Part shown: positions 1-10,400 of the stretch, piece by piece
Layout: every line of letters starts with the position of its first letter
How positions within the stretch are numbered: position 1 is the stretch's first letter
From: a virus
Strand: one strand, 5' to 3'
UHGV virus genome: UHGV-0037186
DNA length: 10,400 bases
The notes under the pieces: model-generated
What the model was told of the DNA's origin: nothing
The model's input: the letters and a program-made list of their open reading frames with translations, nothing else
The model's database searches: none
Position numbers and translations under genes: made by a program

Positions 1-26
1 GCGGAGACGATAAATAAGTAATAAAG

Positions 27-52
27 AAAAACCCGCCATTTGGCGGGTTTTA
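27..52. terminator. Intrinsic (rho-independent) terminator hairpin, symmetric so potentially bidirectional
   Basis: A-tract (27-31), stem CCCGCC (32-37) pairing with GGCGGG (42-47), 4-nt loop ATTT, then T-tract (48-51). Overlaps the stop codon (50-52, minus strand TAA) of the minus-strand ORF 50..610. Confidence 0.7.
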
Positions 53-610
53 TGCGCAAATTTTTTCGCAGTCTTGCGAGTGACTGAGTGAGCGAGTAAC
101 TCTCTCCACCTCATGAATGTCGCCCAACGATCTTATACGCAGGGCAAGATTCCACGTACTCAATGTGCGCGCGTTACGCACCAGTTCTTCCCGTGCTTTT
201 TCGTCTTTGCTGTCAAGACGACCGCAGTCGTTCAACCATTTAGCGACTTCCGCCCAGTCCCAGAGTGGAGACTGACCGCTGATACGCTGAACAGGGCAAG
301 GAAAATCACCTTTGCCACGTAATCCGTCTTTAAGCAGAGTAATAGCCTGGCGCGTTAAGCCAGAGAGTTGAGCAATATCGCTCAAGCCTACCAGTGCTGA
401 ATCTACCGATTCCACCACTGCGCCAATGCCTGCTGTTTCAATATCAAGGATTGCCGATTCGATTGCTTCATCTAAAGATTTAGCTTCTCGGTCAAATTCT
501 ACATACACTGAGTTTCCGTAGTAGCAAATGAGCGCATCATCGCAACCGTGGCTATACAGAGCATCTGCGACTACGCAGTACTGACTACAGGTTATCAGAA
601 TTATCCCCAT
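50..610 (-). CDS. Hypothetical protein, 186 aa; Cys-rich N-terminus (CxxxC ... CxxxxC) and HTH-like C-terminal segment (DIAQLSGLTRQAITLL ... WDWAEVAKWL); possible DNA-binding regulator
   Basis: Long uninterrupted minus-strand ORF ending exactly at the terminator hairpin 27-52. Protein-like composition. No recognisable Shine-Dalgarno upstream of the ATG at 608-610, so the start is uncertain. Function inferred only from motif-level resemblance. Confidence 0.5.
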   Translation of the reverse strand: MGIILITCSQYCVVADALYSHGCDDALICYYGNSVYVEFDREAKSLDEAIESAILDIETAGIGAVVESVDSALVGLSDIAQLSGLTRQAITLLKDGLRGKGDFPCPVQRISGQSPLWDWAEVAKWLNDCGRLDSKDEKAREELVRNARTLSTWNLALRIRSLGDIHEVERVTRSLSHSQDCEKICA

Positions 611-687
611 TTACATCAGCTTATCTACGTCAGCCCTCAAGTTCTTCAGCAAGCCAGCTCCACCGCCTGATTCCAACATGATAAAAT

Positions 688-711
688 TGATATACGAAAA
701 TAAGTATATAG
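688..711. promoter_or_regulatory. Inverted repeat in the divergent intergenic region (candidate operator)
   Basis: TGATATAC (688-695), 8-nt spacer, GTATATAG (704-711); arms are reverse complements at 7 of 8 positions (core ATATAC/GTATAT perfect). Lies between the minus-strand ORF start (610) and the plus-strand ATG at 720. Confidence 0.3.
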
Positions 712-719
712 ATAACATT

Positions 720-1151
720 ATGAGCGCCGATATCTACGAAAAAATCATGTCCGATCTGGAGTTCGACCGCGACAATCTGGAGGAAGTCTGGCGTCAGCAA
801 CCGCGTCTGTTGATGGAGTATGGCTCTAAGCTGGCACGGGCAGAACGTGAGGTTGCAGATGCAAAACTATCTCTCGACGCGATCGAGGCAAAAATCTATG
901 ACAACGAGCGTAAGAGCTTGAGTATGAATGGAATTAAGTTTAATGAATCCGTACTGGAAGCGAAGGTTAGAACCAACCCGCAATACCTCGCAAAGCGCCA
1001 GAAACTCGACGATGCTCGACACATTGCAGACCTGTACAAGCACGCTGTAGCCGCCTTCTCCCACCGCCGCGATATGATTGTCCAGGCGTCGAAGATGGCT
1101 ATCGTAGAGATAGAGCGTCTGGGGGCCGAACGATTCCATTTACCCCGTTAA
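720..1151 (+). CDS. Hypothetical small, predicted helix-rich protein (~143 aa); possible UvsY-like recombination mediator
   Basis: ORF in the track runs 678..1151. I prefer the in-frame ATG at 720 because the inverted repeat 688-711 would otherwise sit inside the coding sequence; neither start has a clear SD. The UvsY-like call is a from-memory pattern resemblance to T4 UvsY and the genomic context (next to gp32-like SSB and RecA-like genes), not a verified alignment. Confidence 0.5.
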   Translation: MSADIYEKIMSDLEFDRDNLEEVWRQQPRLLMEYGSKLARAEREVADAKLSLDAIEAKIYDNERKSLSMNGIKFNESVLEAKVRTNPQYLAKRQKLDDARHIADLYKHAVAAFSHRRDMIVQASKMAIVEIERLGAERFHLPR

Positions 1152-1270
1152 TTTATGCTAGATAGTAAGTAAGTACTGATCTATCATTCTTCTCGCTCGA
1201 AAGAGCCACGAACAAACGAACGCCCAATGCGCATAGCGCCAATGGCCACAATCACAACAAGGAGAAATAC

Positions 1271-2287
1271 ATGTCTAAGTCATTACTTGATCTGCTTAAC
1301 AAGACCCGTGGCGATATTGCTTCCAAACGTGGCAATAACATTGATTTGACCCGTCTGAAAGATGGCAATAACTATCTGCGCATTTTTCCGAACAAGGACG
1401 ATCCGAATGGCGTGTTCTTCCAGACTTTCGGTATGCACTACGTTAAGCATCAGAATGAGGAAGGCAAAGATGTAACCACCGCCTATATCTGCGAACAACA
1501 CACCCACGGCCACGCTTGCCAGCTGTGTGAGATGGTTATGGAAGGTCGCGCTCGCTTTAAGGGCAACAAAGCGATGGAAGAGCGCATTAATAGTATGCGT
1601 GCTACGCCGCGTTATCTGGTCAACGGTGTTCTGTCTGCGCGTGAAGACTTTGCGGACGCAGAGAAATGCCAGCTGATTGAGCTGCCGTCTACGGTCTTCG
1701 ACGATATCTGCAAAGTGATGTCCGAAGATATTGCGGACGATATTGGCAACCCACTGAGCAAAGAAGAAGGCTATGCGTTCCTGATTAAACGCACCGGTTC
1801 CGGTCGTGACACCAAGTACGACGTATCCCCGAAACGTAAAGTCTACAAAGGCGACATTCCTGAGAAGCTCTGGACTACCCAACACGATCTGATCGCATAT
1901 GCGAACCAGGCTGACGAAACTCGTTTGCTGTCCACGACTCGCACTATGGGTCGTCTGATTGGTATTGCGGCTCCGGCAGCAACTATGTCCTCACCAGCCA
2001 TTTCTTCCGCTGCAAAATCAGCCGCAGCTGGACTGCCAGGCTTTGGCTCTATCACTGGTCATACGGAAGGCGCAGCTGCTGTCGCTACAGCACATACTCC
2101 GGCGCCAGAGTCCACCAGCCTGGTTGATGAAGAGATCCTGCGTGCCGCTGAAGCTGAGTTCAAACCGGAAGAAGCGAAAGCTCCGGAAGCCACCGAAGCC
2201 GCAAGTGCTTCAGCATCTGCTGCCGCTGCATCTGTACCAGCTGATGAAGGTCTCGATGACCTGCTGGCTGAACTGGACGCTCTGTAA
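1271..2287 (+). CDS. Single-stranded DNA-binding protein, phage T4 gp32-like (Zn-binding core, low-complexity linker, acidic C-terminal tip)
   Basis: Strong SD AAGGAG (1259-1264) 6 nt before ATG 1271. N-terminal region resembles gp32 (LRIFPNKDDPNGVFF; Cys/His cluster CEQHTHGHACQLCE consistent with a Zn site). C-terminal ~120 aa is Ala/Ser/Pro/Thr-rich and ends in the acidic tip DEGLDDLLAELDAL typical of SSB interaction tails. Followed by a terminator. Confidence 0.75.
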   Translation: MSKSLLDLLNKTRGDIASKRGNNIDLTRLKDGNNYLRIFPNKDDPNGVFFQTFGMHYVKHQNEEGKDVTTAYICEQHTHGHACQLCEMVMEGRARFKGNKAMEERINSMRATPRYLVNGVLSAREDFADAEKCQLIELPSTVFDDICKVMSEDIADDIGNPLSKEEGYAFLIKRTGSGRDTKYDVSPKRKVYKGDIPEKLWTTQHDLIAYANQADETRLLSTTRTMGRLIGIAAPAATMSSPAISSAAKSAAAGLPGFGSITGHTEGAAAVATAHTPAPESTSLVDEEILRAAEAEFKPEEAKAPEATEAASASASAAAASVPADEGLDDLLAELDAL

Positions 2288-2304
2288 TCCCATAACGTAA
2301 CCAG

Positions 2305-2333
2305 TAAGGCGTCTGCGGACGCCTTACTTTTTG
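2305..2333 (+). terminator. Intrinsic terminator after the SSB gene
   Basis: Stem TAAGGCGTC (2305-2313) / GACGCCTTA (2318-2326), loop TGCG, followed by CTTTTTGG. The T-tract runs directly into the SD (GGAAGGAG 2333-2340) of the next gene, suggesting partial termination or attenuation. Confidence 0.75.
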
Positions 2334-2347
2334 GAAGGAGTGTACCG

Positions 2348-3292
2348 GTGAATTATCTCTTTGTGGACGGTAACAGCCTGGGCTATTACCACCAGCAATC
2401 CGACAAATTACACAACGGCGAGATGGAAGTTCAGGCGGCTTTTGGCTTCGTGAAGAACGTTCGTCGTTACGCCTCAATTCTCCATGCCCGGCCAATGATC
2501 TTGTGGGATGGATTCAGCGACAAACGTCGCGACTTCTACCCGGAGTACAAAGCGAACCGCGACGACGACCCGGACATGAAGAAGATGAAAGAAGGCTTTG
2601 CCATCCAGAAGCCGTACATCTTGAAAATGATGACCGCGCTGGGCGTTAACCAACTCATTGCAAAGGACGCAGAAGCGGATGACCTGGCTGGAATGCTGGT
2701 CTCTCGTCTGGCTCCGCAGCCGACCGTCGATCACATCTACCTGCTGACTGGCGATGGCGACTGGCTCCAGCTTGTTCGTGAGAACGTGAGCTGGATAAGC
2801 CTGCGTGAAGACGCCAAGCACAAGCAGGTGAACTTCGAACAGTTCGCAGAGCTGACCGGTCTGCCGACCCCACGCGCGTTTCTGGAAGCGAAAGCGTTGC
2901 AGGGCGATAACTCGGACAACATCAAAGGCGTAGGTGGCATTGGTGATGGTGGCGCGAAAGAGCTGCTTCATGAATGGGGAAGCGTGGCCGCAATGGTACG
3001 CGGCATTAACGACGGTTCCATTGTCATCAACAAAGGTCGCTATAAGACGGCATTCAACAAGCTGGCAAAGAACGCCTTCAACGAGAAGACGGGCTGCCGG
3101 ATGCTCGAAGCCTTTAAGCGCAACATGATGCTGATGAACCTTATCGACACAAAATTCCCACCCAGCGAAATCGAGTCGATTAAAGGCGCACGCGATATGA
3201 GCGCCTTTGAACAGATGTGTTACGAGCTGAATTTCCGTTCGTTTCTGGAAGATCTGGAAGTGTTTGTTCTGCCGTTTGAGAGGTATTGCTGA
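2348..3292 (+). CDS. 5'-3' exonuclease / flap endonuclease (FEN; Pol I 5'-nuclease / T5 D15 / T4 RNase H family)
   Basis: GTG start at 2348 preceded by strong SD GGAAGGAG. Hallmark motifs present: N-terminal LFVDGNSL, acidic clusters (AEADD, LLTGDGDW) and the helix-3-turn-helix DNA-binding motif GDNSDNIKGVGGIGDGGAKELL. Confidence 0.85.
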   Translation: MNYLFVDGNSLGYYHQQSDKLHNGEMEVQAAFGFVKNVRRYASILHARPMILWDGFSDKRRDFYPEYKANRDDDPDMKKMKEGFAIQKPYILKMMTALGVNQLIAKDAEADDLAGMLVSRLAPQPTVDHIYLLTGDGDWLQLVRENVSWISLREDAKHKQVNFEQFAELTGLPTPRAFLEAKALQGDNSDNIKGVGGIGDGGAKELLHEWGSVAAMVRGINDGSIVINKGRYKTAFNKLAKNAFNEKTGCRMLEAFKRNMMLMNLIDTKFPPSEIESIKGARDMSAFEQMCYELNFRSFLEDLEVFVLPFERYC

Positions 3293-3558
3293 TGCTGAAA
3301 TCCATCATTAATGGCGGGGCAACTACGCCAACCATGCTGGCAAAGGAGATTGTTTTCTGCCACGGCGAGCACGCTGTGGTAGCGCTGCCGAACATTCTGG
3401 GCGCTGCTGGCATTTCTGCTACTGAGCGTGAGTTCGCGCTGGTCAGTGAGCAGGTCGTGAAGATCATCGCTCGCGTCGCCAAACACCTGAACCACGACGC
3501 AATCAAGTTTGACGAAGCCGCTGCTTCGAAGCGAATCAACGAATCAAAAGGAGCCTAA
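3292..3558 (+). CDS. Hypothetical protein (~88 aa), unknown function
   Basis: ATG at 3292 overlaps the TGA stop of the upstream FEN gene (TGATG), with GAGAGG upstream, suggesting translational coupling. The track's TTG start at 3286 is unlikely. Ends 2 nt before the recA-like gene, whose SD lies in its 3' end. Confidence 0.55.
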   Translation: MLKSIINGGATTPTMLAKEIVFCHGEHAVVALPNILGAAGISATEREFALVSEQVVKIIARVAKHLNHDAIKFDEAAASKRINESKGA

Positions 3559-3560
3559 TC

Positions 3561-5900
3561 ATGGCAAAAGGCAAATCCGCACTGGCACTGGCGCTGAAAA
3601 AGAAAATCGGCAGCAATGACGAGATTCAGAAGGTCTCCCACTGGATTGACTCCGGTTTCCCTCCACTGAACAAAGCCATTTCCGGACGTTACGACGGTGG
3701 TTTTCCGTGTGGGCGTATCGTTGAAGTCTTCGGGCCACCAAGCGCGGGGAAATGTGTTACCGCAGACACCATGCTGCTGACGGAGCGTGGAATGGTAACA
3801 GTGAAAGAACTGTTTGAGATTGAGGGGCACAAAGCAACATGCACTACTCGCGATGTAGAGCATAACGTTGGACTCATCAATGAAAATGGCGTGATAGAGA
3901 AAACCTCACACCTGACATGGAACAACCGTCGCAAATTCAAGCGCATTAAGCTGGCATCAGGGGGTTACATCGAGGCTACGTTCCGTCACCCAATTCGTGT
4001 GGTTGACGACTTAGGCAATATCGTCTGGCGGTATGCTGAAAAAATCAGTGTAGGCGACACGATTCCTTCAATGGTTGGCACACATCAATTCGGCGATCAG
4101 CACTTGGATGCCAATATCGCAAAACTGATGGGCTATTTAATTGCTGACGGATACGTGGCCTCTGAAAATTCTGTGCATTTTTCTAACACAGATCCATTCA
4201 TCAAGGATGAGTACTACCGCCTCATTTCGCTGGTATCAGACAAGATGCCAGTTACGAGAAAACATAACGGCTCGGAAGACCATGTGCTGTTTAGCAAAGA
4301 GGTGCGTTCGCTGCTTTTTAAAGAATATGGTCTGGAGTATGAGAAAGCTGCTGGCAAGCAGGTTCCGTTGAGTGTGCGTCGCGCCAATAGCGAGGCTCAA
4401 ATTGCATTCCTTCGCGGCTACTTTGAGCTGGAATGCCACGTCAATGATGGTCGCTGCATTGAGGTTGTGAGCGCGAGTGGGCTGCTGCTACAGCAAATTC
4501 GCCTCATGCTCCTGAATCTGGGGATTACGTCAACTATCTCTGAAAAACACGTCGCAGGTTATAAAAACATATATTACCGGCTGTCATTCAGTGGCTCTAA
4601 CTACGACCTTTTCCTGTCAACGATTGGGTTCGAGTCTCCGGCTCGTTTAGCAGTGGCAACCAAACGGGACATTAGTTTTGACCGCACTTATTTAGGCTAC
4701 GTTCCGCACATCAGCGGCTTAGTGAAATCACTCTACGAGTCACTCACCAAGACCTCTCGTAAAGACTACGTTCTGGTAGATCACGTTATTGGCCGCGGCG
4801 ATCGTGTCGGAATAGACAAACTGCGAGAAATCTATGTCTCCTTCATTGGCAGAAAGAATCGTTTTAACGAGCATCTGTTTGCACAACTGGCAGCGGTAAT
4901 TGACTCTAACTTGTTCTACGACGAAGTCGTGGCTATTGAGGAAGGTGAAGCACCAACGTTCGACGTAGCGATGCCGGAAACACACTCTTTCTGGTCTAAC
5001 GGGATTATCAGCCACAACACATTCCTCGCGACGGCTGCGATGGTGTCAGCACAAAAACAGGATGGTCTGGCCGTATTCCTTGACCACGAAAACAGTTTCG
5101 ACGTTGGTCTGGCGGTAGCGAACGGACTGAACGCCGACGAAGACGACGGTCAGTGGGTCTACAAACAGCCGGATACCTTCGAAGACTCCGTAGAGCTGAT
5201 CGGCACAATCCTCAAGCTGGTGCGCGACGAAGAGCTTATTCCGGAAACAGCCCCTATCTGCATCGTAGCCGACTCTCTGGCGTCGATGGTTCCGAACTCG
5301 AAGGCTGAGAAGTTCGACAAGATGGCAGAAGGCACTGCGAAGGACAAAGATCAGCTGAACATGAACGACAACACGGCGCTGGCGCGCGCGACAAGTGCGA
5401 ACTTCCCTACTCTGGCGCTTTGGGCGCGTAAGTACAACGCGTGCATCATCTTCTTGAACCAGGTGCGTACCAAAATTGGTGTGATGTTTGGCGATCCGAC
5501 TACGTCTCCGGGTGGCGACTCTCCGAAGTTCTACGCGTCGGTGCGCATCCGTCTGGGTGCATCCGTCATGAAGGATGGCAAAGAGAAGATCGGACAGGAC
5601 GTTGGCGCCGAGTGCATTAAAAACAAAGTCGCACCTCCGTTTGGCAAATGCTCATGGAAATTCTACTTCGACCCGACTCGCGGGCTGGACGTCGTCGAGT
5701 CTCTGGTTGAATACATGCTGGAGGAAGGATACCTGCCCAAGAGCGCCAGCGGGCGTGTGGAAATTGGCGAGAAGAAATACACCAAATCACAGATCGTCGA
5801 GATGTACCGGGAGAAGCCATTAGCTGAAATCATTGCTGCGTTACAGGCAATAGATGACAGGCGCGAGAAGACATCACCGACAGATGAATTAGAAGATTAA
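3561..5900 (+). CDS. recA: RecA-family recombinase precursor (779 aa) containing an in-frame intein; predicted mature RecA ~357 aa
   Basis: SD AAAGGAG (3547-3553) 7 nt before ATG. N-extein ends GRIVEVFGPPSAGK (compare E. coli RecA GRIVEIYGPESSGKT). C-extein resumes with T and carries RecA-typical segments (FLNQVRTKIGVMFGDPTTSPGGDSPKFYASVRIRLG, compare E. coli [35 protein letters not shown]). Closer to bacterial RecA than to T4 UvsX, by recall. Followed by a terminator. Confidence 0.9.
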   Translation: MAKGKSALALALKKKIGSNDEIQKVSHWIDSGFPPLNKAISGRYDGGFPCGRIVEVFGPPSAGKCVTADTMLLTERGMVTVKELFEIEGHKATCTTRDVEHNVGLINENGVIEKTSHLTWNNRRKFKRIKLASGGYIEATFRHPIRVVDDLGNIVWRYAEKISVGDTIPSMVGTHQFGDQHLDANIAKLMGYLIADGYVASENSVHFSNTDPFIKDEYYRLISLVSDKMPVTRKHNGSEDHVLFSKEVRSLLFKEYGLEYEKAAGKQVPLSVRRANSEAQIAFLRGYFELECHVNDGRCIEVVSASGLLLQQIRLMLLNLGITSTISEKHVAGYKNIYYRLSFSGSNYDLFLSTIGFESPARLAVATKRDISFDRTYLGYVPHISGLVKSLYESLTKTSRKDYVLVDHVIGRGDRVGIDKLREIYVSFIGRKNRFNEHLFAQLAAVIDSNLFYDEVVAIEEGEAPTFDVAMPETHSFWSNGIISHNTFLATAAMVSAQKQDGLAVFLDHENSFDVGLAVANGLNADEDDGQWVYKQPDTFEDSVELIGTILKLVRDEELIPETAPICIVADSLASMVPNSKAEKFDKMAEGTAKDKDQLNMNDNTALARATSANFPTLALWARKYNACIIFLNQVRTKIGVMFGDPTTSPGGDSPKFYASVRIRLGASVMKDGKEKIGQDVGAECIKNKVAPPFGKCSWKFYFDPTRGLDVVESLVEYMLEEGYLPKSASGRVEIGEKKYTKSQIVEMYREKPLAEIIAALQAIDDRREKTSPTDELED
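3753..5018 (+). mobile_element. Intein (422 aa) with LAGLIDADG homing-endonuclease domain, inserted in the Walker A P-loop of the RecA-family gene
   Basis: Starts with Cys (codon 65, TGT 3753-3755) immediately after GPPSAGK. Ends ...GIISHN (His-Asn, codons 485-486) followed by Thr+1 (the Walker A Thr). Block B-like T-x-x-H (ATFRHPI). LAGLIDADG motifs LMGYLIADGYV (~4124-4156) and FLRGYFELECHV (~4407-4442). Length is a multiple of 3 (1266 nt) and in-frame. Confidence 0.85.
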
Positions 5901-5905
5901 TTTTC

Positions 5906-5930
5906 AGGCGTCCGAATGGACGCCTTTATA
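5906..5930 (+). terminator. Intrinsic terminator after the recA-like gene
   Basis: Stem AGGCGTCC (5906-5913) / GGACGCCT (5918-5925), loop GAAT, followed by TTTATA. Stem sequence is closely related to the SSB terminator stem. Confidence 0.7.
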
Positions 5931-5990
5931 CCTTGAAAATATATAAGCACTTACTTACCATCTACACACAATAGCCACATAGGAAAACAC

Positions 5991-6191
5991 ATGATCAAAC
6001 TCTATCTGATGGCAGTGGCTACAGGTATATCTGTAGTTTTCATCTACTGTTTGCTGGTTCCGTCGCTGATCTCGGCTAAAAGCAATATTGCCGTAATGCT
6101 TGGAATCATTGTTGCTTTTGGCGCTCCTGTTATCGGCTTTAATGTTGGTCGTAACTTTCTGAAGTCACTAATTAATTCGAAGGGGAAGTAA
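5991..6191 (+). CDS. Small hydrophobic membrane protein (66 aa, two predicted TM helices)
   Basis: AGGA (5981-5984) 6 nt before ATG. Two long hydrophobic stretches (LYLMAVATGISVVFIYCLLVPSLI and IAVMLGIIVAFGAPVIGF) with a basic C-terminus. Its stop overlaps the SD region of the next gene. Confidence 0.5.
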   Translation: MIKLYLMAVATGISVVFIYCLLVPSLISAKSNIAVMLGIIVAFGAPVIGFNVGRNFLKSLINSKGK

Positions 6192-6194
6192 GTA

Positions 6195-6386
6195 ATGAAG
6201 AAAGGTTTACTGGCAGTGATCGTGGCTGCTGTTTGCACAATGGGTCTTACAGGCTGCGATCGTGTTGAGCCTGGGTACGTTGGCATCAAAGTAAACAAAT
6301 TGGGTGAAGACAAAGGTATCGGTGAAGTTGTCGGCGTTGGCCGTCAGTGGACTGGTCTGAATACCGAGCTGTACACCTCTCTTTAA
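6195..6386 (+). CDS. Small lipoprotein (63 aa); possibly a truncated N-terminal fragment of an SPFH/band-7-type lipoprotein
   Basis: SD AAGGGGA 7 nt before ATG. Signal peptide MKKGLLAVIVAAVCTMG plus lipobox L-T-G-C. The mature part (VEPGYVGIKVNKLGEDKGIGEVV...) resembles the start of an SPFH domain, but the ORF stops after ~40 residues of it. Confidence 0.55.
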   Translation: MKKGLLAVIVAAVCTMGLTGCDRVEPGYVGIKVNKLGEDKGIGEVVGVGRQWTGLNTELYTSL

Positions 6387-6409
6387 GTCATCTTAAATGA
6401 CTCTGAGGT

Positions 6410-6457
6410 GTCTGTTAAACCTGTGGCGATTCAGTCTATTAAACCTGTGGCGATTCA
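6410..6457. repeat. Tandem direct repeat, 2 x 24 bp (GTCTGTTAAACCTGTGGCGATTCA / GTCTATTAAACCTGTGGCGATTCA), one mismatch
   Basis: Read directly from the sequence at 6410-6433 and 6434-6457. Lies in the 232-bp AT-rich non-coding spacer between the lipoprotein ORF and hsdM. Confidence 0.8.
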
Positions 6458-6618
6458 CTTTATGGTGTCATAAACTTAAATCTAGCGCCGGGTAGAACAA
6501 GTTAATCGAACGATGTAGCGGCCATTTAGGCGTTACAGAAAGAACAGAATTTTAAATTTATAGTGAAGCCGTTGCAGCAACTTTGTGGGGTGCAACCAAC
6601 ACTGAACAGGAAAAGAAA

Positions 6619-9042
6619 ATGGATCATAGTGTACATAACAAGCTCATCTCATTTATTTGGAACATTGCCGACGACTGTTTACGTGATGTGTACGTTCGCG
6701 GTAAGTACCGCGATGTGATTTTACCTATGGTGGTATTACGACGTTTAGATACGTTACTTGAACCCACCAAAGAAGCCGTGCTTGAAGAGGTCAAGTTCCA
6801 AAAAGAAGAGATGCAAGCCACGGAGCTTGATGATGAACCATTGAAGGCGGCTAGTGGTTATGTTTTTTACAATACATCTAAATGGACCCTGAAATCCCTG
6901 TTCAACACCGCAACGAATAACCAACAGATATTACTCGCCAACTTTGAAGAGTACCTGCTTGGCTTTAGCGATAATGTTAAAGAAATCATTGAATGCTTTA
7001 ACCTCAAGTTGCAAATTCGTCACATGGCCTCAAAGCAAGTCCTTCTTGATGTCGTCGAAAAGTTTGTTTCCCCTTACATCAACTTAACTCATGAAACGGT
7101 CGAAGACCCAGATGGCAACAAGATGCCAGCCCTTACTAACCTGGGTATGGGGTACGTGTTCGAAGAGTTGATCCGTAAGTTCAACGAAGAAAACAACGAA
7201 GAAGCCGGTGAGCACTTTACACCTAGGGAAGTGATTGAGCTGATGACACACTTGGTTTTTGACCCAGTGAAAGAGCAGCTACCATTGACCATGACCGTTT
7301 ACGACCCTGCGTGTGGTAGCGGTGGTATGCTCACTGAATCTCAAAACTTCATTGAAGAGAAATACCCGAACGACAGCCGAGATATTTACCTTTACGGCAA
7401 AGAGATCAATGACGAGACCTACGCGATTTGTAAATCGGACATGATGATCAAAGGCAACAACCCTGAGAACATCAAAGTAGGCTCAACCTTGTCTACCGAC
7501 GAGTTTGCGGCTTCACGCTTTGACTTTATGTTGTCTAACCCGCCATACGGTAAGAGTTGGGCGTCTGAACAGAAGTACATTAAAGACGGCAGTGATGTGA
7601 TTGACCCGCGTTTTAAGGTTAGCCTGAAAGACTATTGGGGAAATCTCGAAGTGGTGGATGCCACGCCACGTTCGAGTGATGGCCAGCTGCTTTTCTTAAT
7701 GGAGATGGTCAACAAGATGAAAGATCCGAGCGTAAGTCCATTAGGCAGCCGGATTGCCTCTGTTCATAACGGCTCATCGCTCTTTACCGGTGATGCGGGC
7801 GGTGGCGAAAGTAATATTCGTCGCTTCATCATTGAAAACGACATGCTAGATGCCATCGTTCAGTTACCTAATAACCTGTTCTATAACACTGGCATTACCA
7901 CTTACATTTGGGTGTTGAGCAACAATAAACCTGAGGCGCGTAAAGGTAAGGTGCAATTAATTGATGCCAGCTTGCTCTACCGTAAGTTGCGCAAGAACTT
8001 AGGTAACAAAAACTGCGAATTTGCGCCTGAGCACATCACGGAAATTACCGATACTTACCTCGCGTGTAAGGATGTTGAAAGAGCACTGGATGCAAACAAT
8101 GATCCTGTTGGCATCGCCAGTAAGGTATTCAGCAATGACGATTTTGGCTACTACAAAGTCACTATCGAGCGCCCAGATCGCCGCAAAGCCAAGTTTACTC
8201 AAGATGCCATAGCCCCACTGCGTTTTGATAAGCAACTTAGTGAAGTGATGGAGTACGTGTACGCAGAGCACGGCGAACGTGTTTACGAAAAAACTGGCTA
8301 CGGGTCAGATCAGAAAAAGAGCTTCTTAAAATCCATCGAGAAAGACATTCTTTCTTGGTGTGAAGATAACGACATCAGTCTCAATGCTAAGGCTAAGGCC
8401 AAACTGCTTGATGTGAAACACTGGCTGGCGCTAAAAGCATTGCTTGAAACTGCACAAACGCTGATGGCTGACATCGGTAGCATTGAATTTGATGACTTCA
8501 ATAGCTTTAAAACCCAAGTTGATAAATCGCTAAAAGCCCATGCTATTAAGCTTTCAGCACCTGAGAAAAATGCCATTCTTCACGCGGTGAGCTGGTATGA
8601 CGAAACCGCCAAGAAAGTGGTTAAAAAGGTAGTTAAATTAACGGGTGATAAATTAAACGACCTGCTGGAGCGCTATGAGTGTGAAGTCGCTGACTTGCCA
8701 GATTTTGGTTATTACCCCGTTCCTTCAGCAGAAGGCGGTAAAAAAGGCGAGTATATCACTTACGAGACCAATTCAGACCTGCGAGATACAGAATCTGTTC
8801 CATTAAAGCAAAGCATTTACCAGTACTTCCTAGATGAAGTGAAGCCTCATGTCGATGAAGCATGGATAAACCTAGATACGGTAAAAATTGGCTATGAAAT
8901 CAGCTTCAATAAGTATTTCTACCGTCATAAACCGCTGCGTAGTTTAGAAGAGGTCGCAACCGACATCATCAACCTAGAACAAAAAGCCGAAGGTTTGATT
9001 GCGCAGATTCTTGGTGCGGAAGTAAAAAAGGTTCAGGGGTAA
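6619..9042 (+). CDS. hsdM: Type I restriction-modification system, DNA methyltransferase subunit M (N6-adenine), unusually long (~807 aa)
   Basis: SD AGGA (6608-6611) 7 nt before ATG 6619; the track's 6583 start is an upstream TTG extension. HsdM N-terminal domain signature (LISFIWNIADDCLRDVYVRGKYRDVILPMVVLRRLD), FTPREV, AdoMet motif I DPACGSGGML (~7303-7332) and catalytic motif IV NPPYG (~7537-7551). About 330 aa extend beyond the catalytic core. Confidence 0.9.
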   Translation: MDHSVHNKLISFIWNIADDCLRDVYVRGKYRDVILPMVVLRRLDTLLEPTKEAVLEEVKFQKEEMQATELDDEPLKAASGYVFYNTSKWTLKSLFNTATNNQQILLANFEEYLLGFSDNVKEIIECFNLKLQIRHMASKQVLLDVVEKFVSPYINLTHETVEDPDGNKMPALTNLGMGYVFEELIRKFNEENNEEAGEHFTPREVIELMTHLVFDPVKEQLPLTMTVYDPACGSGGMLTESQNFIEEKYPNDSRDIYLYGKEINDETYAICKSDMMIKGNNPENIKVGSTLSTDEFAASRFDFMLSNPPYGKSWASEQKYIKDGSDVIDPRFKVSLKDYWGNLEVVDATPRSSDGQLLFLMEMVNKMKDPSVSPLGSRIASVHNGSSLFTGDAGGGESNIRRFIIENDMLDAIVQLPNNLFYNTGITTYIWVLSNNKPEARKGKVQLIDASLLYRKLRKNLGNKNCEFAPEHITEITDTYLACKDVERALDANNDPVGIASKVFSNDDFGYYKVTIERPDRRKAKFTQDAIAPLRFDKQLSEVMEYVYAEHGERVYEKTGYGSDQKKSFLKSIEKDILSWCEDNDISLNAKAKAKLLDVKHWLALKALLETAQTLMADIGSIEFDDFNSFKTQVDKSLKAHAIKLSAPEKNAILHAVSWYDETAKKVVKKVVKLTGDKLNDLLERYECEVADLPDFGYYPVPSAEGGKKGEYITYETNSDLRDTESVPLKQSIYQYFLDEVKPHVDEAWINLDTVKIGYEISFNKYFYRHKPLRSLEEVATDIINLEQKAEGLIAQILGAEVKKVQG

Positions 9043-9048
9043 GTCGTT

Positions 9049-10350
9049 ATGATGAAGATTTCTGAAATGCCGAAATATGAGGTTTATAAGGATTCAGGTG
9101 TTGAATGGCTAGGGGATATTCCTGCGTCTTGGAGCTTATTAGCTAATAAGCACATCTTTCGCTTGAAGAAAAAACAGGTTGGAAAACGCTCAAGCGAATA
9201 TGATTTGCTATCGCTTACTCTCAGAGGTGTGATTAAGCGTGATATGGAAAACCCAGAGGGTAAGTTCCCAGCAGAGTTCGATACTTATCAAGAAGTGCAG
9301 TGTGGAGATTTCATTTTCTGCTTGTTCGACGTGGAAGAAACACCCAGAACTGTTGGGTTGTCGCCATTTAATGGGATGATTACTGGTGCATATACCGTTT
9401 TTGAACTAAATGACAATTTTGATAATAGGTTTTTATACTATTTTTATATGAACCTTGATGCAAAAAAGATGCTTAAACCGCTTTATCGTGGCCTGAGAAA
9501 TACAATTCCTAAAGATTCATTTCTGAGTTTTAAGACGTTTGTTCCTCCCCATGAGCAACAAACCCGTATCGCCAACTTCCTAGACAAGAAAACCGCTCTA
9601 ATCGACGAAGCGATTTCGATCAAAGAGCAGCAAATTAGCCTGCTGAAAGAGCGTAAGCAGATCATCATCCAACAGGCGGTGACCCAAGGGCTTGATCCCA
9701 ATGTGCCAATGAAAGACTCCGGTGTGGATTGGATTGGTAAGATTCCAGCGCATTGGGATATTGTGCCAGGATTTACAGTATTTAAAGAGGGAAAAGACTC
9801 GAACAAAGGGATGATTGAATCACAAGTTTTATCTCTCAGTTATGGAAATGTTATTATAAAACCAGAGGAGAAATTGGTTGGGCTTGTACCTGAGTCTTTT
9901 GAAACGTATCAAATAGCTTTACCTGGCGACATCATAATACGTTGTACAGACTTGCAAAATGACAAAACGAGCTTGAGAACGGGTATAGTGCGGAATAAAG
10001 GAATTATAACTAGTGCTTACCTTAACTTACGGTTGAAAACGGAACATTCAGCTGAATTTATGCATTATTTTCTTCATGTATTAGATATAACTAAAACTAT
10101 ATATCGTTTTGGTTCTGGGCTGAGACAAAACTTGAGTTATAAAGATTTTAAGCATATGAGAATATTGATGCCTCCTAAAGCAGAGCAAATTGAAATAGTA
10201 AATTACATCAATAATCAAGTAGAAGTGACTGAGTCATCTATTGATCTGATTAAAAATAAAATAGAAAAATTAAAAGAATACAAAACCACCCTGATCAACA
10301 GCGCCGTGACAGGAAAAATAAAAATCACCCCAGAAATGGTTGAGCAATAG
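9049..10350 (+). CDS. hsdS: Type I restriction-modification system, specificity subunit S (two target-recognition domains)
   Basis: Starts 6 nt after the hsdM stop (translational coupling). Internal duplicated architecture typical of HsdS: TRD1 begins SGVEWLGDIPASWSL, TRD2 begins SGVDWIGKIPAHWDI; conserved central region (PPHEQQTRIANFLDKKTALIDEAI) and C-terminal region (PPKAEQIEIVNYINNQVEVTESSI). The 3' half is very AT-rich. Confidence 0.85.
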   Translation: MMKISEMPKYEVYKDSGVEWLGDIPASWSLLANKHIFRLKKKQVGKRSSEYDLLSLTLRGVIKRDMENPEGKFPAEFDTYQEVQCGDFIFCLFDVEETPRTVGLSPFNGMITGAYTVFELNDNFDNRFLYYFYMNLDAKKMLKPLYRGLRNTIPKDSFLSFKTFVPPHEQQTRIANFLDKKTALIDEAISIKEQQISLLKERKQIIIQQAVTQGLDPNVPMKDSGVDWIGKIPAHWDIVPGFTVFKEGKDSNKGMIESQVLSLSYGNVIIKPEEKLVGLVPESFETYQIALPGDIIIRCTDLQNDKTSLRTGIVRNKGIITSAYLNLRLKTEHSAEFMHYFLHVLDITKTIYRFGSGLRQNLSYKDFKHMRILMPPKAEQIEIVNYINNQVEVTESSIDLIKNKIEKLKEYKTTLINSAVTGKIKITPEMVEQ

Positions 10351-10359
10351 GACGCGAAT

Positions 10360-10400
10360 ATGTTCACGGTAAATCATCAAACCAACAGGATTAGTCCTGT
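10360..10400 (+). CDS. 5' end of an unidentified downstream ORF (MFTVNHQTNRISP...), truncated by the window edge
   Basis: ATG at 10360, 9 nt after the hsdS stop, with a weak AGGA upstream. Only 13 codons visible; could be hsdR or an accessory gene, and cannot be identified from this fragment. Confidence 0.2.
   Translation, partial: MFTVNHQTNRISP

Follow-up and report, generated by a model that had tools for sequence, protein, structure and literature searches.

A nested DUF4268 gene for a predicted nuclease in a probable four-gene hsd operon of an SSU5-like phage-plasmid

The stretch of 10,400 nucleotides (nt) from virus genome UHGV-0037186 that is analysed here, referred to as the window, ends within a Type I restriction-modification (R-M) locus. 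Its plus strand carries hsdM (6619..9042; 807 amino acids (aa), RefSeq WP_023135725.1) and hsdS (9049..10350; 433 aa with two target-recognition domains (TRDs), RefSeq WP_023135724.1), followed by the first 41 nt, or 13 full codons, of a third gene (10360..10400, plus strand) that extends past the end of the window and, as shown below, encodes a DUF4268 protein of the PDC-S11 family with the features of a nuclease, ahead of hsdR. The stop codon of hsdS ends at 10350, and the ATG at 10360, with an AGGA 7 nt upstream, opens the frame MFTVNHQTNRISP... An earlier note on this DNA had described only the M and S subunits inside the window and a new open reading frame (ORF) starting 9 nt past hsdS, and both observations are correct. 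It had left two options for the locus, a modification system made up of M and S only, or a Type I locus with an accessory gene inserted ahead of hsdR, and had suggested extending the sequence downstream to tell which of them applies.

The extension was provided by identical records. The window is 100% identical, over its full length, to NZ_CP090457.1, plasmid pB379_2 of Escherichia coli B379, and to NZ_CP058829.1, a plasmid of Shigella flexneri, both of which are SSU5-like phage-plasmid records. When the sequence is continued in pB379_2, in the Shigella plasmid and in a chromosomal E. coli copy, the ORF at 10360 turns out to be a DUF4268 gene, not a canonical HsdR of about 1000 aa, and hsdR comes after it. 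The ORF is annotated as DUF4268 in both identical plasmids, in about 20 related phage-plasmids and in 40 or so E. coli chromosomes; in its intact form the gene has 1164 nt and its product, called here the accessory protein, has 387 aa. In every window-identical record hsdR is intact, lies on the same strand about 1.2 kb downstream and encodes a protein of 1005 aa with an HSDR_N nuclease domain, a SWI2_SNF2/ResIII region (SF2 helicase) and a T1R_D3 domain, including the motifs D..ELK, GSGKS and DEAH. An orphan M and S pair, used by a mobile element for self-protection and devoid of a cognate restriction subunit, is what the window displays when taken by itself; with an intact same-strand hsdR in all window-identical records, and also in all 58 E. 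coli genomes that keep both junctions of the DUF4268 gene, that option of the earlier note fails and can practically be discarded.

The four genes are arranged on one strand in the order hsdM, hsdS, DUF4268 gene and hsdR, separated by 6, 9 and 14 nt, respectively. A promoter and terminator scan placed no terminator-like site in the gaps between the four genes, and promoter-like sites were fewer than in shuffled sequences. Such a scan says only that nothing opposes a single operon, and as the short gaps contain no terminator-like site one operon is the simplest reading. HsdM matches the Pfam models HsdM_N (E 6.7e-23) and N6_Mtase (E 4.2e-60) and the PADLOC model MTase_I (E 5e-268); its ORF is open from a TTG at 6583, the RefSeq start being the ATG at 6619. 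The protein is about 300 aa longer than classical HsdM, and its residues ~500-807 have no Pfam match. Both HsdM and HsdR score below the cut-offs of the TIGR hsdM and hsdR models (TIGR00497 for HsdM), and they show only distant similarity to the subunits of EcoR124 and EcoKI. Scoring below the TIGR00497 equivalog cut-off, HsdM is, as judged from its sequence, a member of a divergent Type I family, and this long-HsdM family is possibly not one of the classical groups IA-IE. HsdS is matched by Pfam Methylase_S in two stretches and by PADLOC Specificity_I (E 3.6e-99). A sibling phage-plasmid carries an hsdS allele (11750-13063 in that record) that is identical except for a wholly different TRD1, residues ~25-170, and this exchange implies a predicted switch of recognition specificity inside the lineage. 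The predicted Type I system is complete, comprising M, S and an intact R, and with all three subunits intact the system of this element should be functional.

Relatives of the long-HsdM family are found as plain M-S-R loci, in which hsdS directly abuts hsdR, on plasmids of Enterobacter asburiae and Acetobacter pasteurianus; their HsdM proteins have about 800 aa and their HsdR proteins are 42% and 70% identical, respectively, to the one described here. The existence of such plain relatives identifies the DUF4268 gene, on gene-order grounds, as an accessory insert in the hsd operon and not as a core subunit. The second option of the earlier note, an accessory gene inserted ahead of hsdR, was thus the appropriate one.

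The accessory protein matches Pfam DUF4268 (PF14088) in its C-terminal third (E 1.4e-39, 135.7 bits for a cut-off of 27) and the PADLOC model PDC-S11 (PDLC04913) from residue 1 to residue 383 of 387 (E 7.9e-183). Its N-terminal part gives below-threshold matches to the PD-(D/E)XK and NucS_C models of Pfam, and among the NCBIfam models none matches the protein. Residues E26, D63, K79, Q90 and Y94 are invariant among 61 diverse full-length homologues (29-60% identity), and E77 is conserved in 99% of an alignment of 102 sequences, while in the poorly conserved C-terminal domain little is kept beyond two tryptophans. A search of the PDB sequences with the single sequence gave no match, and the family profile alone reached NucS, aligning the block lDLLALDkegnLVvIEnKlddsgkdvvwQAlkYa (D/ExK/Q/Y) with the catalytic core of NucS from P. 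abyssi; the E of this match, 0.003, is borderline. An AlphaFold model calculated from the 61-sequence alignment attained a pLDDT of 94.8 and replaced a single-sequence model (pLDDT 43) that was unusable. The predicted architecture consists of an N-terminal NucS-like PD-(D/E)XK nuclease domain, a long connecting helix and a C-terminal DUF4268 domain, whose fold, on structure comparison of the model, resembles YbjN and type III secretion chaperones. Taken together, the conserved signature, the alignment with NucS and the confident model indicate that the accessory protein is a predicted PD-(D/E)XK nuclease with an intact active-site signature (E...D...ExK...Q...Y) joined to a variable domain. 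Among viral proteins in BFVD only Gp54 of Bacillus phage G has a similar overall predicted structure (Foldseek E 1.3e-9), and PHROG 27742 matches the DUF4268 domain.

NucS/EndoMS is the closest structural and profile match, as it should be if the accessory protein were a housekeeping mismatch-repair endonuclease of that type, located in the hsd locus by chance. The PD-(D/E)XK core of NucS/EndoMS (PDB 2vld, 5gke), with its D, ExK, Q and Y, is indeed present in the accessory protein, but the flanking domains and the genomic context differ: the protein remains below the curated threshold of Pfam NucS_C and does not have the N-terminal DNA-binding domain of NucS, and its gene is mobile and defence-linked. 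A housekeeping role of this kind is very improbable. The family to which the protein belongs, PDC-S11, is large, with 5527 clusters (at 50% identity) at E<=0.001 and 471 at E<=1e-30. PDC systems were predicted through 'guilt by embedding' in Type I, BREX and DISARM loci, and they are candidates that were not individually tested (bioRxiv 10.1101/2024.01.29.577857).

The genomic context of the family was studied in a sample of 80 loci from different species of many phyla, whose homologues have 49-99% identity; the DUF4268 gene was callable in 76 of them. It lies between hsdM/hsdS and hsdR, on one strand with them, in 24 of the 76 loci, and just past hsdR in two more. The surrounding Type I genes belong to at least two families, with an HsdM of either ~800 aa or ~520-600 aa, and the DUF4268 homologues are 73-99% identical beside a long HsdM and 57-65% identical beside a short one. 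A first pass with phmmer, using HsdM, HsdS and HsdR of the present locus as queries, found Type I genes in 33 of the 80 loci and in the reference chromosomal copy, and two rounds of home-made hidden Markov models added little for hsdM and hsdR. No Type I genes were detected in 43 of the 76 loci (23 of these with at least 4 kb on both sides), a fraction of solo genes that is perhaps overestimated, as the detection in other species has limited sensitivity and divergent systems may hide. The neighbours in these 43 loci, as identified by Pfam, are mixed and include integrases, PIN, Mrr, AbiEii-like ATPases and housekeeping genes. Several species (loci L010, L018, L023, L026, L036, L038 and L065) have further genes between the DUF4268 gene and hsdR, the largest being an ORF of 1982 aa in L018; with extra nested genes in several loci, the gap between hsdS and hsdR behaves as a hotspot that collects them. 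Among complete E. coli genomes the gene is present in 59 of 5426, and in 58 of these 59 both junctions, with hsdS and with hsdR, are kept.

The position of the gene inside a Type I operon, like that of prrC inside EcoPrrI (PMC12707154), invites a reading in which the nuclease would be a guardian similar to PrrC. It would be silenced by the surrounding Type I complex until the latter is put out of action by an anti-restriction protein of a phage (Ocr, ArdA or Stp-like), and the nuclease thus freed would degrade DNA as an abortive or back-up response. The tight packing of the four genes, the fact that in E. coli the gene is essentially always in the hsd operon, and the company that close DUF4268 proteins keep with one Type I family, seen in the identities given above for long and short HsdM, would all agree with such a role. 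However, the accessory protein has no similarity to PrrC or RloC, their hallmark of an ABC-ATPase N-domain and an anticodon-nuclease C-domain finding no Pfam or PADLOC match in it. Moreover, homologues of it lie within Type I loci of two or more unrelated families, and of the well-flanked loci about half are without nearby Type I genes, whereas PrrC is almost exclusively embedded (bioRxiv 10.1101/2024.01.29.577857). This mechanism would explain the strict linkage in E. coli, and it is the main rival to a modification-dependent one, but on balance it is unlikely.

The copy of the accessory gene in the lineage of the window is not the intact one. The three best-matching plasmids, which are independent assemblies, have in common a 1-bp deletion at nt 1095 of the 1164-nt gene (position 21155 of pB379_2). 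The resulting product has 365 aa, the last 23 residues (365-387) being lost, which in the model make up the second half of the C-terminal helix (349-383). In addition, the truncated allele has V162F, a change at a position of moderate conservation, and in pXJW9B263-1 there is an additional 22-bp duplication (~12778-12799 in that record) with in-frame stops; RefSeq marks the gene as frameshifted in pB379_2 and in pXJW9B263-1. The 365-aa product is found on 133 contigs, compared with 162 contigs carrying the exact HsdS allele, and it is therefore a circulating allele and not a sequencing error. The intact 387-aa allele occurs together with an identical HsdS on an E. coli chromosome. Further truncations were suspected in two 366-aa 'variants' of the protein cluster, but these are alternative start calls. 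On these sequences the nuclease module may be weakened or dead in the element of the window, the Type I system remaining intact.

The frameshift flags, the common deletion, the duplication with stops, the V162F change and the abundance of the truncated product relative to the exact HsdS allele would all be accounted for if the DUF4268 gene were a decayed passenger, that is, a non-functional pseudogene in this lineage, in a locus that the phage-plasmid uses as a plain Type I R-M system against competing DNA. Against this, the nuclease domain is untouched by the truncation and the DUF4268 domain is almost complete, and the region lost is poorly conserved in the family; the persistence of a single allele over many contigs, most copies of which show no more decay, would fit a protein that still functions. 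Decay is thus a serious possibility, albeit one that we do not favour. A further explanation would be that the nuclease is a DNA-targeting partner of the Type I enzyme, either guarding it or closing its gaps in a modification-dependent manner, and that the recurrent truncation in the SSU5-like lineage reflects a conflict with the lytic replication of the element. If true, a defence cassette of the host would have been tamed by the phage-plasmid and turned against competitors; this combination is unlikely.

Overall, the locus is best read as a four-gene hsd operon with a nested nuclease, in which a complete Type I system is borne by a phage-plasmid and the nuclease is most likely an autonomous defence module, and to this reading as a whole a probability of about 0.7 can be assigned. 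The conserved active site, the single-gene architecture, the nested as well as solo occurrence and the nesting in unrelated Type I families all speak for an autonomous module. In its specific form the proposal is tentative, and we place it a little short of even odds: the accessory protein would be an autonomous DNA nuclease carried and co-transcribed in the hsd operon, and not a Type I subunit, that cleaves DNA escaping Type I, for example hypermodified phage DNA. The hsd operon would serve the nuclease gene as a carrier and for co-expression, the nuclease would cleave the DNA that Type I restriction misses, and the variable DUF4268 domain would act in sensing or regulation. Hypermodified phages that Type I enzymes are unable to cut would in this way be covered by a nested nuclease similar to Type IV enzymes. 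The dependence on modification is possibly of the sort seen in the DUF4268-containing MdgA. MdgA and MdgB are nucleases with a DUF4268 domain that protect E. coli against T4 but not against cytosine-containing T4-GT7, and purified MdgA degrades T4 DNA carrying glucosyl-hydroxymethylcytosine (glucosyl-hmC) and, far less, T4-GT7 DNA, the E77A mutant being inactive (PMC12366544). DUF4268 is also fused to Type IV enzymes of the GmrSD type (PMC4619093). The catalytic residue of MdgA is E77, and E77 of the accessory protein lies inside the ExK motif.

Several points weigh against an autonomous, modification-dependent module. No published functional test of PDC-S11 or of the accessory protein was found in the literature. 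The truncated allele is dominant in the lineage, and the module may be inactive there. The nearly constant linkage to the hsd operon in E. coli would look the same if the nuclease depended functionally on the Type I enzyme, and the solo fraction in other species carries the possible overestimate already mentioned. As regards the comparison with MdgA, this protein had no homology to known defences in a scan with PADLOC v2.0 (PMC12366544) and therefore may not belong to PDC-S11, and the residue number E77 common to both proteins may be a coincidence.

The operon rides on a cassette bordered by insertion sequences (IS) within the SSU5-like phage-plasmid. Homology to Salmonella phage SSU5 ends at 6378, inside an SPFH/band-7 lipoprotein gene of which the 5' remnant (6195..6378, plus strand) is left, interrupted by the cassette; the annotation of pB379_2 gives it as an SPFH pseudogene missing its C-terminus, and the intact SSU5 gene has 831 nt. 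From 6379 onwards the G+C content is 0.36-0.48, compared with 0.44-0.56 in the backbone. Relative to SSU5 the cassette displaces about 1.7 kb, comprising most of the SPFH gene, SSU5_063 and most of SSU5_064. The left border (6379..6459, minus strand) consists of the terminal ~57 nt of an IS, with its outer end ...GGCGATTCA at 6435, and a second copy of the 19-nt terminus at 6441-6459, so that the 19-mer TTAAACCTGTGGCGATTCA is present in two tandem copies; the border also holds the perfect hairpin AGTCAT-cttaa-ATGACT. The segment 6379-6435 was found in ~1195 of 5426 E. coli genomes, with as many as 16 copies per genome, and also in several lambdoid phages, and in the two records inspected it adjoins the start of a minus-strand transposase fragment. 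The left border (6379-6458) was also considered as the right end of an IS3-family element located upstream in the chromosomal copy, an assignment that was rejected: on comparison, this element proved to be IS911, whose insertion point, at 6388, lies in a different IS-end remnant. The right border lies ~95 nt past hsdR and consists, according to the pB379_2 annotation, of an IS3-family fragment followed by a group II intron and IS110. In the chromosomal E. coli copy, IS911 flanks both sides.

Just past hsdR there is a small ORF (MLKAVSELLGGSPGLKGRQIAKELGL...; 20186-20314 in the chromosomal copy, 24270-24348 in pB379_2) that resembles the start of a helix-turn-helix protein and is cut by IS elements at points that differ between records. 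The cassette copy on a Vibrio gigantis plasmid lists a WYL-domain gene. Possibly, the small ORF is what is left of a regulator that the cassette has lost. Between Vibrio, Alteromonas, Shewanella, Marinomonas, Cellvibrio, Morganella, Providencia and E. coli the accessory protein keeps 98-99% identity, which indicates that the cassette has moved recently and widely. This identity between genera, which extends over Morganellaceae and Enterobacteriaceae, together with the G+C content of the cassette below that of the backbone, suggests a recent spread, perhaps out of marine Gammaproteobacteria.

The remainder of the window, from 1 to 6378, is a replication and recombination module of an SSU5-like phage-plasmid. 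It comprises genes for an AlpA-like regulator, a protein annotated as UvsY, a gp32-type single-stranded DNA-binding protein, a 5'-3' exonuclease, RecA with a LAGLIDADG intein and a small membrane protein, and the start of the SPFH lipoprotein gene; the annotation as UvsY recombination mediator was taken from Escherichia phage Cyrano. The RecA of the phage-plasmid (3561-5900, plus strand; 779 aa) matches Pfam RecA, Intein_splicing and LAGLIDADG_3, being split by an intein with a LAGLIDADG homing endonuclease. The recombinase of SSU5 at the corresponding place is only 1077 nt long and is therefore without intein. The first bases of the window are the final few of a C-terminal remnant of dnaE: just upstream of window position 1, at 8136-9722 of pB379_2, an IS3 element splits the dnaE of the phage-plasmid, and the same is seen in the Shigella plasmid. 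An Rfam scan of the window returned zero RNA families.

The arrangement described here is not new, as RefSeq annotates it and PADLOC lists it as PDC-S11 (Payne et al. 2024). The accessory protein is of that same DUF4268 family, with a full-length match, and is likewise nested in a Type I R-M locus; PDC-S11 is a prediction only, and the copy in the lineage of the window differs by its C-terminal truncation. MdgA and MdgB also combine a nuclease with DUF4268 and are single-gene defences, MdgA being compared here by description only (PMC12366544). Type IV enzymes with PD-(D/E)XK cleavage domains, such as AspBHI, MspJI and McrC, and the GmrSD-DUF4268 fusions, are comparable in their type of cleavage domain or in DUF4268, but no SRA-like or other recognised modified-base reader was detected in the accessory protein, and its DUF4268 domain has the fold mentioned above, similar to YbjN and the type III secretion chaperones, which are not known to be DNA readers. 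The prr locus, in which PrrC is embedded in the Type IC system EcoPrrI, is likewise a case of an accessory defence gene nested in a Type I hsd operon (PMC12707154), and the analogy with it that the earlier note had drawn holds for the position of the gene but not for the type of protein. PrrC, made up of an ABC-ATPase and a tRNA-Lys anticodon nuclease, senses when its Type I partner is inhibited, whereas the accessory protein is similar to DNA nucleases, with a predicted PD-(D/E)XK fold and DUF4268; unlike PrrC, its homologues are often found away from Type I genes. A large family of nucleases with a clear active site, for which no published functional test was found, is of modest but real interest, and the phage-plasmid gives an example of an element bearing a full restriction system gained through IS activity. 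With its natural intact and truncated alleles and its plain M-S-R relatives, the E. coli cassette would be a convenient system in which to study the role of genes embedded in Type I loci.

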